Assembly (NCBI RefSeq): GCF_003334305.1
Contig: NZ_QOWS01000001.1
Reading direction: 5' to 3' (one strand)
Source of the DNA: Escherichia coli
GTDB taxonomy: Bacteria > Pseudomonadota > Gammaproteobacteria > Enterobacterales > Enterobacteriaceae
Length of the DNA stretch: 64,000 nucleotides
Part shown: positions 27,842 through 29,767 of the stretch, in pieces
Numbering within the stretch: position 1 is the first letter of the stretch
Layout: each line of letters opens with the position of its first letter
Made by a program: the position numbers and the translations under genes
The notes under the pieces: generated by a model
The model's database searches: none
Told to the model about the DNA's origin: nothing
The model's input: only the letters and a program-made list of their open reading frames with translations

Positions 27842-28977
27842 AAACAAATAACAAAAAAATAAAAGCATTTATTTTTTTTATATCAATATTTCTCTACTTT
27901 TTCAAAAGTGTTTTTATTTCATTAGAGCTTCCTGAGGATTTAATAGGGGGAGTATCAAATATCATAAATGCACTAATATTGGCTATATTATCTCCAGTCA
28001 TTCTACTGTCAAATAAAAAACAATGTGCATTTATAATTTTTTTAATTATATTGTTTGTTTATAATGCCATTTTTTATAATAACATCTATATGTTTGGTTT
28101 TATAATTATCGCATGCATGTTGATACTAAGTAACGGAATATATTGGAGGGATATTATCAGATACTTGTCACTGGCCCATTTTTTGGTGATTCTTTTTATC
28201 ATTCCTTTAGTTTTTTTTGCAGAAAAATACTCTTTTATTGATGATAGATTTGGAGTTAGATATACATTTGGCTTCCATAATCCGAATACATTTAGTCAAT
28301 ATTTAATTTCTTTATATGTAGTGTTCTTGTTGTTATTTGTTGAAGTTATCAAAAAAAAATCTCTGCAATTTTTGACTGTTATAATATTGACTCTATTTAT
28401 ATATGGGGTGATATCCTTAACTGGTTCAAGGACGGGAATGATATTAACTATTATTACCGGCTTCGGTTTTTTAGCATGTACACTGTCTAAAACGAATGAT
28501 AAAAAAAGAAGAAAGTTTGTATATTTATACATACTAGGTGCAGGAATATTATGTTTTATACAATATTATCTTGCCTTAACATATAATCATTCAGAGTTCT
28601 CAAAAAACATAAATACAATTCTTTCTGGTAGAATATGGTTTTCTTCACAATTAACTAGCCAATTATGGCCTGTCCCATATTTCCATGGTGTGAATATTAA
28701 TGATTATTTGCCAATTGATTTCTTCTACGTGGCTTATTTTTACAATCTTGGGATTTTTATTGGTTCTTGGTTTATATACCTCTTTATAAGAAAAATGTTT
28801 GTGCAAACATATACTCCTGTTATGGTAATTGCGCTTTGGTTATCGCTTGCAATAACGGTCACTGAAAATTATTATGCAATTCCGTTGTATAATATTAGTT
28901 TATTTATTGTTTTTTCCTCAAGATATGTGATTAATGAAAATGAAAACAGCTGTACTTATCCAAGCTCACAAAAATGA
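27838..28977 (+). CDS. wzy: Wzy-type O-antigen/K-antigen polymerase
   Basis: 379 aa very hydrophobic multi-TM protein without transporter motifs, in an O-antigen-type cluster. Confidence 0.7.
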   Translation: MKTNNKKIKAFIFFISIFLYFFKSVFISLELPEDLIGGVSNIINALILAILSPVILLSNKKQCAFIIFLIILFVYNAIFYNNIYMFGFIIIACMLILSNGIYWRDIIRYLSLAHFLVILFIIPLVFFAEKYSFIDDRFGVRYTFGFHNPNTFSQYLISLYVVFLLLFVEVIKKKSLQFLTVIILTLFIYGVISLTGSRTGMILTIITGFGFLACTLSKTNDKKRRKFVYLYILGAGILCFIQYYLALTYNHSEFSKNINTILSGRIWFSSQLTSQLWPVPYFHGVNINDYLPIDFFYVAYFYNLGIFIGSWFIYLFIRKMFVQTYTPVMVIALWLSLAITVTENYYAIPLYNISLFIVFSSRYVINENENSCTYPSSQK

Positions 28978-29767
28978 AAATTATATTAGAGAATTGGCGT
29001 TAAACAATCCATCAGTTCGTTTTTATGTACATATGGATGCCAAGTATCCAAATAAAATCCAATGGATTAAAAATGAATGTATTGATAACATCTATTTAAT
29101 TGAAAATCCAGTTTCGGTTTACTGGGGGGGAAGTAGTCAGATTTTTGCAACTCTATTATTGATGAAGAAGGCATACAGTGATAAGAGAAATAAGTTTTTT
29201 CATCTCGTAAGTTCAGAATGCGTTCCATTAAAGTCATTTGTTGAAATTGAAAACGAATGGAGCATGAATGAAAACTGTCAATTTATTGAGTCGCATAGAG
29301 ATAAAAATAATGAGTGGAGACTAAAGGTTCGGGTCCCTCACTCAAATACGAAGTATCTTAGGACTTTTTTAGGACGATGTGCCAATAAACTCTTTAAAGT
29401 AACTACTTTTTTATGGGATAGTGTAGGTTTAAATCCCGAAAACTATTTTTTTGGTTCCCAATGGTTTTCGGTAACTAGAAATTTTGTTGAGCAAGTAATA
29501 GATGAAGATAATGAAGATTTTTTTAAAACATTCCATAATATAACTTGTGCAGATGAGCATGCTTTTGCTATTTTTGCACGAACAAAATATTCTAACCCGA
29601 ATGATATTCAAGATAACAATAAAAGATTCATTAAGTTTTTAGGTAAGTCAAGTCCAGAATATTTAAGTTTAGATCAAGTGGGGCAGATTAAGAATCTTAA
29701 CTCGTATTGGTTTTGCAGGAAGGTGAGATGTAATGATTTATTAAAAATAATAAGGCAGGAGAAGTGA
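28934..29767 (+). CDS. GT14-family (core-2/I-branching-like) glycosyltransferase
   Basis: 277 aa; family-like motifs TAVLIQAHKN, SVYWGGSSQIFATLLL, GSQWFSVTR, DEHAF; alternative ATG at 28940. Confidence 0.65.
   Translation: MKMKTAVLIQAHKNENYIRELALNNPSVRFYVHMDAKYPNKIQWIKNECIDNIYLIENPVSVYWGGSSQIFATLLLMKKAYSDKRNKFFHLVSSECVPLKSFVEIENEWSMNENCQFIESHRDKNNEWRLKVRVPHSNTKYLRTFLGRCANKLFKVTTFLWDSVGLNPENYFFGSQWFSVTRNFVEQVIDEDNEDFFKTFHNITCADEHAFAIFARTKYSNPNDIQDNNKRFIKFLGKSSPEYLSLDQVGQIKNLNSYWFCRKVRCNDLLKIIRQEK

Follow-up and report, generated by a model that had tools for sequence, protein, structure and literature searches.

The O46/O134 operon and its GT14 gene

The 64,000-nucleotide stretch of Escherichia coli DNA that we analyzed (hereafter the window) carries, between galF and gnd, an operon of six plus-strand genes in the order ATP-grasp ligase, wzx, GT2 glycosyltransferase, wzy, GT14 glycosyltransferase, and GT2 glycosyltransferase (24786–30498). 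These genes are spaced by −44 to +1 nt, and all six are intact and 99.6–99.9% identical to those of strain NCTC11121. An ops element, GGCGGTAG (24764–24771, plus strand), precedes the first gene by 22 nt, and promoter-like sites within the operon do not exceed chance (38, against a shuffled expectation of 39.4). The first gene (24786–25631) is named in RefSeq as a TupA-like ATP-grasp amidoligase, and its orthologues match Pfam PF14305. It is followed by wzx (25633–26934), annotated in RefSeq as the O46/O134-family O-antigen flippase; by the gene for a 301-aa GT2 glycosyltransferase (26936–27841; hereafter the upstream GT2), whose NCBIfam GT2 matches, including WcaA and TuaG, all fall below the cutoffs; and by wzy (27838–28977), annotated in RefSeq as the O46/O134-family O-antigen polymerase, which encodes an intact, strongly hydrophobic protein of 379 aa that is 99.6% identical, without gaps, to that of NCTC11121. 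After the GT14 gene, the operon ends with the gene for a 244-aa, TuaG-like GT2 of what we call type A (29764–30498; NCBIfam TuaG, 196 bits, below cutoff; hereafter the partner GT2). Two further plus-strand genes are relevant here: gnu (22347–23342), annotated in RefSeq as the GlcNAc-PP-undecaprenol 4-epimerase that makes the GalNAc-PP-undecaprenol (GalNAc-PP-Und) primer, and ugd (32245–33438; NCBIfam NF011631, 827 bits, above cutoff), whose product, UDP-glucose 6-dehydrogenase, supplies UDP-GlcA. The serogroup-specific wzx and wzy, the gene order, and the location between galF and gnd are those of O46/O134, so the enterobacterial polysaccharide setting named in a preliminary description of this DNA is the E. 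coli O46/O134 O-antigen cluster. According to its title, a 2015 report describes D-glucuronoyl-D-allothreonine in the O46/O134 polysaccharides (Perepelov 2015, cited in PMC7685785), and we regard the ATP-grasp amidoligase as a candidate for joining D-allothreonine to GlcA. The window also holds a complete O8-type ABC-transporter cluster, and NCTC11121 has the O46/O134 cluster only.

The GT14 (Pfam Branch) gene itself (28934–29767, plus strand) is an open reading frame with an ATG start that encodes 277 aa and shares 44 nt with the 3′ end of wzy and 4 nt with the GT2 gene that follows it. The preliminary description had the reading frame exactly, and all three of its GT14-type motifs are found in the 277-aa protein (AVLIQAHKN at residue 6, VYWGGSSQ at 62, and GSQWFSVTR at 174). 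A second ATG at 28940, which would give 275 aa, is the start position of nearly all homologues and is probably the true start; a 275-aa form is also present in database records. The reading frame is not a chance one, because the exact protein is recorded on 303 contigs, the gene occupies the same locus in 17 genomes, and homologues occur elsewhere. The protein lacks a hydrophobic segment (maximum KD19 of 1.03, against 2.64 for Wzy), has a pI of 9.0, and begins its first β-strand at residue 5 in the AF2 model; judging by sequence and model, it is most likely a cytoplasmic protein, soluble or peripheral, that consists of a single GT-A domain.

The gene is already known. Its product is RefSeq WP_000782890.1, placed in the E. 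coli O46/O134 O-antigen operon; it is also catalogued in UniProt, and the cluster was published in 2015–16. The novelty that the preliminary description implied does not hold, and there is little left to discover about a gene, a family, and a cluster that databases and the 2015–2016 O-antigen literature already cover. A blastn search of 5,426 complete E. coli genomes found the gene in 17 of them, at 96–100% DNA identity and always at the same locus, which is chromosomal in 17 out of 17 cases and in none on a plasmid. A distant blastn search of the same 5,426 genomes found no diverged copy beyond these 17, in agreement with the earlier remark that GT14 enzymes are uncommon in O-antigen loci. 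Homologues at 35–68% identity are found in Leclercia, Siccibacter, Providencia, Rouxiella, and Rosenbergiella, and the bacterial family of compact proteins of ~280 aa comprises 4,368 clusters at E ≤ 1e-10 and as many as 8,090 at the looser threshold of E ≤ 1e-3. One cluster considered as a second 'E. coli' family (P0012) was rejected, as it is actually a Providencia/Morganellaceae cluster. Database names for these proteins vary widely: RefSeq uses 'beta-1,6-N-acetylglucosaminyltransferase', a product name whose source is the Pfam family name; UniProt automatically names most homologues 'Peptide O-xylosyltransferase', also in AFDB; and many GenBank copies are labelled 'conjugal transfer protein', which is unsupported because the Pfam match and the fold are unambiguous.

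Family and fold

The gene encodes a real member of the GT14 (core-2/branching) family, as sequence and model both indicate, and the family call of the preliminary description was right. The protein matches Pfam PF02485 with an i-Evalue of 8.9e-26 (91.4 bits; residues 22–236 against positions 21–227 of the 250-position model), as do 21 out of 21 close homologues, and its best sequence matches in the PDB are C2GnT-L and XylT1, with XylT1 the best in profile-to-sequence comparison (E = 1e-8). The AF2 model (pLDDT 94, pTM 0.92) leads to the same two enzymes: in Foldseek, the best matches are C2GnT-L (E = 8e-16, TMq 0.75) and XylT1 (E = 1e-13, TMq 0.74), the top 18 PDB matches are all one or the other (E from 8e-16 to 2e-12, TMq 0.73–0.75), and other GT-A folds are much weaker (E ≥ 6e-5, TM ≤ 0.43), the first of them having E = 6e-5 and TM 0.39. 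The HMM check for another glycosyltransferase family or a non-glycosyltransferase fold thus left the GT14 assignment standing. NCBIfam gave no match for the GT14 protein and likewise no model for the ATP-grasp protein, wzx, or wzy.

The closest characterized system is C2GnT-L (GCNT1) of mouse and human (PDB 2GAK, 2GAM, and 3OTK), which provides the best fold match, belongs to the same Pfam family, has a glutamate in its SPDE motif that corresponds to E208 of the bacterial protein, and shares with it the absence of a functional DxD motif, C2GnT-L being metal-independent (PMC4202792). However, the two proteins are only 18% identical, and the bacterial one is a bare 277-aa GT-A domain without type II anchor or stem, in whose cytoplasmic setting the four structural disulfides of C2GnT-L (PMC4202792) are not expected. 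Moreover, C2GnT-L acts on a glycoprotein, whereas the acceptor here would be a lipid-linked bacterial glycan. Human XYLT1 (PDB 6EJ7 and others), the second fold match, is alike in W392, W495, and E529, which correspond to W64, W177, and E208, and in an adjacent Arg-Lys pair. In contrast, its Xylo_C domain, N-terminal extension, and active-site flap are not evident in the bacterial protein, its D494 corresponds to Q176, its acceptor is a peptide serine, and the bacterial cluster is without a UDP-xylose pathway. The plant β-glucuronosyltransferases GLCAT14A-E are also GT14 enzymes and transfer GlcA onto galactans, GlcA being a component that the title of the structural report places in the O46/O134 polymer; unlike the bacterial protein, they reside in the Golgi as type II membrane proteins, and the comparison with them is at the level of the CAZy family. 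The true family of the protein is that of the stand-alone bacterial GT14/Branch proteins, which have ~270–300 aa, TM values of 0.8–0.95, and 24–48% identity to it, and which all lie in polysaccharide loci; examples are Gtr4 of Acinetobacter baumannii and homologues in Cronobacter sakazakii, Glaesserella parasuis, and Providencia. Our search of the accessible literature found no biochemical data on this protein or any bacterial GT14, and no experimentally assigned linkage for a stand-alone bacterial GT14, Acinetobacter Gtr4 included.

Active-site residues

To compare the active sites, we took the residue equivalences with XylT1 from a profile alignment, verified the chain offset on four residues, and counted conservation in 134 wider and 21 close relatives. 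The putative catalytic base is E208 (D207-E208-H209 codons at 29552–29560), which aligns with Glu320 of the C2GnT-L SPDE motif and with Glu529 of XylT1 and is invariant in both sets (21/21 and 134/134). Both of these glutamates are the proposed catalytic bases of their enzymes (PMC4202792; PMC5992326), and the E529A mutant of XylT1 is inactive (PMC5992326). Near the C-terminus, the motif WFCRK contains the adjacent pair R262-K263 (29717–29722), with R262 present in 133 and K263 in all 134 of the wider relatives and the pair invariant in the close family. XylT1 holds the donor diphosphate through the adjacent pair R598-K599, without a metal (PMC5992326), and from this precedent and the conservation we propose that R262-K263 replaces the metal in the same way. 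Profile alignments to XylT1 and C2GnT end before this WFxRK region, and a search with a 54-aa fragment of it gave no match.

The donor pocket resembles that of XylT1 rather than that of C2GnT-L. W64, in the WGG motif (W64-G65-G66 codons at 29123–29131), aligns with XylT1 W392 and is a tryptophan in 131 of the 134 relatives (98%). W392 makes an apolar contact with the donor sugar and is said to exclude hexoses (PMC5992326); with W64 kept at this position, a hexose donor would be disfavoured if the geometry is alike. In the segment G174-S175-Q176-W177-F178 (codons at 29453–29467), W177 aligns with W495 and is conserved in 129/134 relatives, and Q176 aligns with D494, a polar donor contact in XylT1 (PMC5992326). 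Position 176 is variable in the family (Q in 58 of the 134 relatives, N in 25, S in 23, A in 10, T in 6, and C in 5), and Q176 is a candidate specificity determinant. C2GnT-L differs at these positions, with Tyr/Ala/Ser in place of W64/G65/G66 and Ala/Tyr in place of Q176/W177, and its basic residues R378 and K401 come from two regions of the protein (PMC5992326), whereas the bacterial pair is adjacent. Judged at the level of these residues, the names 'beta-1,6-GlcNAc transferase' and 'peptide O-xylosyltransferase' both lack justification, and the entries of the bacterial family should read 'GT14 family glycosyltransferase'.

Pairing with GT2 and Gnu across loci

A GT2 gene lies directly 3′ of the GT14 gene in all nine genomic contexts, and Gnu, which makes GalNAc-PP-Und, is also in the locus in six of them. 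In Leclercia, Siccibacter, and Providencia M-8, the gene after GT14 encodes a type-A partner at 53–66% identity, and the partner GT2 itself is 46–53% identical to the first glycosyltransferases encoded in the E. coli O24 and O27 clusters, each of which bears Gnu. In three Providencia loci, Gnu orthologues (49–50% identical) directly follow the GT14-GT2 pair. In Acinetobacter K loci, the glycosyltransferase gene beside that of the initiating transferase makes the first intra-unit linkage and moves in modules with a second gtr gene. These comparisons suggest that the first intra-unit linkage on GalNAc-PP-Und is likely the work of the partner GT2. The adjacency is suggestive of consecutive steps and not proof of them, because the GT2 partners fall into two unrelated types (~23% identity), with the GT14 tree independent of partner type, and because GT2 is the commonest glycosyltransferase family in such loci. 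According to a review, GT2 enzymes with a DxDD motif form β1,3-Gal/Glc linkages to GalNAc or GlcNAc. We rejected this motif as a linkage clue: the partner GT2 has DSDD, and DxDD is uninformative because all type-B partners and the upstream GT2, taken as a control (DDDD), have it as well.

The Acinetobacter KL2 locus offers a possible precedent. There, we take Gtr4 to be assigned to β-D-Glcp-(1→6)-D-Galp, with its gene preceding gtr5, which makes β-D-Galp-(1→3)-D-GalpNAc; if correct, this assignment would be a parallel to the GT14-GT2 gene pair.

Proposed function

Taken jointly, our findings support, with a probability of about 0.8, the reading that the gene encodes a cytoplasmic, metal-independent, inverting GT14 glycosyltransferase that, following the GT2 step, extends the lipid-linked repeat unit by one β-linked sugar. 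In the pathway that we propose, WecA and Gnu would provide the GalNAc-PP-undecaprenol primer for an O46/O134-type O-unit, which the three transferases of the operon (GT2, GT14, and GT2) would build. The GT14 enzyme would act on the lipid-linked oligosaccharide once the adjacent downstream GT2 has attached the second sugar. As expected from its homology to the two GT14 enzymes of known structure, it would make one β-linkage from a UDP-α-sugar in an SN2-like inverting transfer, with E208 as general base and R262-K263 holding the UDP diphosphate instead of a DxD-bound metal. To our knowledge, all characterized GT14 enzymes act on a primary hydroxyl (the C-6 hydroxyl of Gal or GalNAc, or that of Ser), and we therefore predict a β-(1→6) linkage. 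The preliminary description went further and expected a HexNAc or a side-branch residue; this does not follow, given that the pocket is unlike that of C2GnT-L and that known GT14 enzymes employ three donors (UDP-GlcNAc, UDP-Xyl, and UDP-GlcA). For the donor, we infer a ranking in which a common UDP-hexose (Glc or Gal) and UDP-GlcNAc stand about level and UDP-GlcA comes after them. As a small soluble E. coli GT14 with a known polysaccharide product and with assays at hand for the neighbouring GT2 class, the protein would make a convenient first case for the family.

A bolder and doubtful extension is that GT14, the following GT2, and Gnu form a portable module that builds a mucin-like, core-2-type trisaccharide on lipid, with the donor set by position 176. 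The GT14 protein would in that case be a minimal enzyme that needs no metal and relies on a cis Arg-Lys pair in the manner of XylT1. The product would then be either Hex-β1,3-(X-β1,6)-GalNAc-PP-Und or X-β1,6-Hex-β1,3-GalNAc-PP-Und. If this were true, no bacterial GT14 before this one would have had its reaction defined, and position 176 would offer an easy means of predicting donor specificity, or of redesigning it, in thousands of homologues. The conserved GT14-GT2(-Gnu) gene order, together with the variable residue in the pocket, provides concrete and cheap gene-to-linkage hypotheses for O-antigen and capsule typing.

Alternative readings

It is possible, at odds well short of even, that the protein is a true β-1,6-N-acetylglucosaminyltransferase that transfers GlcNAc to O-6 of GalNAc (or Gal) in Hex-β1,3-GalNAc-PP-Und, and thus a bacterial counterpart of the core-2 enzyme. 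C2GnT-L, the best fold match, acts on Gal-β1,3-GalNAc-R (PMC4202792; PMC5992326), the neighbouring GT2 is related to enzymes that work on GalNAc-PP-Und primers, and Gnu is in the locus. UDP-GlcNAc is moreover a housekeeping donor, in keeping with the finding that no dedicated sugar-synthesis gene is common to the nine contexts. However, identity to C2GnT-L is a mere 18%, W64/Q176/W177 stand against its Tyr/Ala/Tyr at the XylT1-defined donor contacts, and the two basic residues R262 and K263 are neighbours, like those of XylT1, instead of coming from different GT-A regions as in C2GnT-L (PMC5992326). The RefSeq name adds nothing to this reading, as it comes from the Pfam family name and NCBIfam has no match.

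That the protein is instead a glucuronosyltransferase, adding GlcA from UDP-GlcA before the ATP-grasp ligase amidates it with D-allothreonine, seems to us rather unlikely. In its favour are the D-glucuronoyl-D-allothreonine named in the title cited in PMC7685785, ugd shortly downstream, and the amidoligase at the head of the operon; plant GT14 members put GlcA on β-1,3- and β-1,6-galactans, and in Providencia M-8 a C-terminal remnant of ugd lies directly 5′ of the GT14 gene. Yet the link of the bacterial GT14 family to GlcA genes is inconsistent across loci, with the GT14-GT2 pair occurring without a TupA-type ATP-grasp gene or a nearby intact ugd in four of them (L005, L006, L007, and L012). 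WcaA is the proposed GlcA transferase of colanic acid, and the upstream GT2 is an equally good candidate for this step because it is weakly WcaA-like.

A pentose (xylose-type) transferase, as the automatic UniProt name and the XylT1-like pocket would have it, is very improbable. W64, W177, and E208 do match three of the four xylose contacts of XylT1, the Arg-Lys pair is adjacent likewise, and AFDB homologues carry the name 'Peptide O-xylosyltransferase', but the fourth contact, D494, is Q176 here, and W64 is unlikely to define xylose specificity because 98% of a very large family of bacterial proteins share it. In addition, the 277-aa protein has no Xylo_C domain, the acceptor must be a lipid-linked glycan and not a peptide, and a search for a UDP-xylose synthase (UXS-like) gene in the cluster and related loci found none, the SDRs near GT14 loci being Gnu orthologues or RmlB-like. 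Least credible of all is a non-working relic in an O8-mannan strain or a protein of some other function: the complete O8-type cluster in the window and the many 'conjugal transfer protein' labels in GenBank may invite these ideas, but the reading frame and its five neighbours show no disruption and match, at 99.6% identity or more, those of a strain that has just the O46/O134 cluster, the catalytic residues and the ops element are all retained, and the gene is chromosomal in 17 out of 17 genomes, with an unambiguous fold and Pfam match.

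Results and discussion

The preliminary description read the ORF at 28934-29767 (+) as a glycosyltransferase of the GT14 (core-2/I-branching) family. The ORF listing confirms an ATG start and 277 aa at this place, and the three motifs quoted in support (AVLIQAHKN, VYWGGSSQ, and GSQWFSVTR) lie at residues 6, 62, and 174. Because nearly all homologues begin where the second ATG lies (28940), the product may, judging by these alignments, truly be 275 aa long. The gene is located between galF and gnd in a low-GC island (GC of 0.28-0.31 in the galF-gnd region vs 0.49 across the window). 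An identical protein is found on 303 contigs on record. At the DNA level (96-100% identity), the gene is rare, being present in 17 of 5,426 complete E. coli genomes (0.3%), always on the chromosome and at the same locus, and blastn found no diverged copies among these 5,426 genomes.

The family assignment is correct, as Pfam, PDB sequence matches, and structure prediction all agree. The protein matches PF02485 (Branch, Core-2/I-branching enzyme; E=8.9e-26), and its only PDB sequence matches are mouse C2GnT-L, a GlcNAc-transferase, and, using a family profile, human xylosyltransferase 1 (XylT1). A confident AlphaFold2 model (pLDDT 94, pTM 0.92; 21 homologues as input) gave strong Foldseek matches in the PDB to these two enzymes only (C2GnT-L, E=8e-16, TMq 0.75; XylT1, E=1e-13, TMq 0.74), followed by a gap to generic GT-A folds (E>=6e-5, TM about 0.4). 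Checking for an HMM assignment to another GT family or a non-GT fold thus upheld GT14 by both Pfam and fold. A search of 1.84 billion representatives returned 8,090 relatives at E<=1e-3, 4,368 at E<=1e-10, and 185 at E<=1e-30; among the best 150, most are 270-300 aa long and match from residue 1. Homologues in AFDB50 are spread over Proteobacteria, Firmicutes, Bacteroidota, cyanobacteria, and one archaeon, and include Acinetobacter baumannii Gtr4 and a second E. coli O-antigen-cluster protein. The latter (A0A0A8J514, 292 aa, 28% identity) is GT14-like and too diverged for blastn; the former (N0A3V0, 31% identity) is a structural homologue from a capsule locus. We found no paper on a characterised bacterial GT14 enzyme in the literature searched; for the bacterial family, the closest functional reference point would be the published linkage assignment of Gtr4.

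To compare the active sites, we relied on the two solved enzymes, in which Glu320 of C2GnT-L (SPDE motif) and Glu529 of XylT1 are the proposed catalytic bases (PMC4202792, PMC5992326); the XylT1 mutant E529A is inactive (PMC5992326). Residue E208 aligned with both. An offset of +208 between XylT1 chain and residue numbering, anchored on the catalytic Glu, puts Trp, Asp, and Trp at 392, 494, and 495, the residues named in the paper, which confirms the alignment register. XylT1 contacts xylose through polar D494 and E529 and apolar W392 and W495, and binds the diphosphate through the adjacent pair R598-K599 rather than a metal (PMC5992326). At the four contact positions our protein has W64, Q176, W177, and E208, and it also has an adjacent R262-K263. 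It thus resembles XylT1 in its Trp/Trp/Glu contacts and adjacent Arg-Lys and differs from it in having Q176 in place of D494, whereas in C2GnT-L the three non-catalytic positions are Tyr, Ala, and Tyr and the two basic residues lie in separate regions (PMC5992326). We infer the equivalence of R262-K263 and R598-K599 from this likeness, because the alignments (family profile, fragment search) stop short of that region of XylT1. Over 134 stand-alone relatives, E208 and K263 are invariant (134/134 each) and R262 (133/134), W64 (131/134), and W177 (129/134) nearly so; position 176 is variable (Q58, N25, S23, A10, T6, C5). Taken at the residue level, these comparisons suggest the machinery of a metal-independent inverting GT14 enzyme with a pocket nearer to XylT1 than to C2GnT-L, in which position 176, as the only contact that varies, may plausibly determine specificity.

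Characterised GT14 enzymes use UDP-GlcNAc, UDP-Xyl (PMC4202792, PMC5992326), or UDP-GlcA, so the donor is not deducible from family membership. We compared nine genomic contexts and found no sugar-synthesis gene common to all of them, which points to a housekeeping UDP-sugar. UDP-GlcA is a possible donor that fits the presence of ugd and of an ATP-grasp ligase as well as the polymer chemistry discussed below, but the GT14 gene also occurs in loci without a TupA-type ligase and without an intact ugd nearby. The HexNAc or side-branch role favoured in the preliminary description is not what the pocket residues would suggest. No UDP-xylose synthase was found in the cluster or related loci; the candidate SDRs nearby are orthologues of Gnu, the GlcNAc-PP-Und 4-epimerase (49-50% identity).

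The gene belongs to an operon of six genes spaced by -44 to +1 nt, in the order ATP-grasp (TupA-like) amidoligase, wzx, GT2 (301 aa), wzy, GT14, and a TuaG-like GT2 (244 aa, 29764-30498), preceded by an ops element (GGCGGTAG, 24764). Promoter-like sites within the operon show no excess over chance. Gnu is encoded upstream of galF and ugd downstream of gnd. Each of the six genes is intact, with 99.6-99.9% identity to its NCTC11121 counterpart, and RefSeq labels wzx and wzy as 'O46/O134 family'. From three inverting transferases and a GalNAc-PP-Und primer made by WecA/Gnu, we infer an O unit of four sugars with three beta-linkages. The O46/O134 clusters have been compared (DebRoy et al., 2016; PMC4732683), and, going by the title of the work on their chemistry and genetics (Perepelov et al., 2015, cited in PMC7685785), both polymers contain D-glucuronoyl-D-allothreonine. 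For the step that joins D-allothreonine to GlcA, the obvious candidate is the amidoligase (24786-25631; PF14305 on orthologues, no NCBIfam model); no D-allothreonine synthesis gene is evident in the operon. Exact GGCGGTAG matches number four in the window (1.24 expected by chance), two further ops-like ones lying within or ahead of the colanic acid region (2452-2459 and 11939-11946). The wzy gene of E. coli H15 (9920-11044 of its locus) is marked frameshifted by RefSeq. A 13-kb comparison of the window with H15 shows 2 mismatches and 10 gap openings, of which 9 fall in wzy. In the window, wzy (27838-28977) is an unbroken ORF of 379 aa with 99.6% identity to NCTC11121, so that an assembly indel artefact seems to lie behind the H15 frameshift. 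Similar fragmentation runs through the whole cluster of SCU-485.

A same-strand GT2 gene follows the GT14 gene in all nine contexts (-11 to +73 nt). These partners are of two unrelated types (about 23% identity between them): type A, to which the TuaG-like GT2 belongs (about 243 aa, 52-66% identical among themselves), and type B (about 271 aa, 44-64%). Because the GT14 tree does not track partner type, the sequences indicate that partners were exchanged while adjacency was kept. The whole six-gene cluster is syntenic in Leclercia and Siccibacter loci, and E. coli and Providencia sp. M-8 share only the GT14/type-A pair (53% and 54% identity), the rest of the cluster differing. In M-8, the GT14 gene is immediately preceded by a 90-aa C-terminal UDP-glucose dehydrogenase remnant (8716-8988 of the M-8 locus), and two transposase genes lie another few kb upstream, which suggests that the pair arrived by recombination beside a ugd gene. 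Rouxiella and Rosenbergiella-like loci of the Wza/Wzc capsule type (L005, 12628-14717; L012, 13938-14948) have a WbaP-like initiating enzyme, and their transferase genes are interspersed with one for a GH43-family glycoside hydrolase; L005 additionally encodes a more distant paralogue of the Branch/GT14 family (298 aa).

A Gnu orthologue directly follows the pair in three Providencia loci. Two E. coli clusters that contain Gnu, O24 and O27, have first transferases sharing 46% and 53% identity, respectively, with the type-A partner. The gtr that adjoins the initiating transferase gene in K loci of Acinetobacter forms the first intra-unit linkage and moves in modules with a second gtr. Taken together with the adjacency, these observations suggest an order in which the GT2 adds the second sugar onto GalNAc-PP-Und and GT14 acts next; this order is suggestive only, since no family is commoner in such loci than GT2. 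We discarded a DxDD motif as a possible link between the partner and beta1,3-Gal/Glc transferases, as the control GT2 has it too.

The GT14 protein has no hydrophobic segment (maximum KD19 of 1.03 vs 2.64 for Wzy), has a pI of 9.0, and in the model begins directly with the first beta-strand; it is therefore predicted to be cytoplasmic or peripheral, in contrast to the type II Golgi GT14 enzymes. We propose that it would act as a cytoplasmic, metal-independent, inverting transferase, adding a single beta-linked sugar to the O46/O134 unit on its Und-PP carrier, probably in the step immediately following that of the adjacent GT2. Characterised GT14 enzymes glycosylate a primary hydroxyl, and this protein is predicted to do likewise, which would give a 1->6 linkage.

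Our result is a correct re-identification of an already catalogued gene, given that RefSeq (WP_000782890.1, 'beta-1,6-N-acetylglucosaminyltransferase') and UniRef ('Core-2/I-branching enzyme') annotate it and the O46/O134 cluster is published. Its most useful yield is a caveat on names: the RefSeq name, 'conjugal transfer protein' on many GenBank copies, and the automatic UniProt names of homologues ('Peptide O-xylosyltransferase' and, once, 'Glycogen branching protein') are all unsupported at the residue level.

The window holds a second complete O-polysaccharide cluster (35613-47782), of the O8-type mannan ABC-transporter type, inserted between wzzB and the his operon, whereas in standard O46/O134 strains (NCTC11121, A13) wzzB leads directly to hisIE. 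It comprises an ops element (35613), manC (35702-37117), manB (37111-38517), wzm (38519-39313), wzt (39313-40527), and further ORFs at 40527-41804, 41807-45448, 45500-46657, and 46667-47782. This double arrangement is seen in at least 7 of the 17 genomes that carry the GT14 gene, and the wzzB-manC junction occurs in 238 genomes in all. Either polymer may be the O antigen in such strains, where the O46/O134-type polymer may be a capsule-like K antigen. The 1.1-kb wzzB-manC spacer (34562-35701) includes an AT-rich stretch and a short ORF, which RefSeq genomes annotate as 'hypothetical protein'; the spacer probably marks the junction created when the O8 cluster was acquired.
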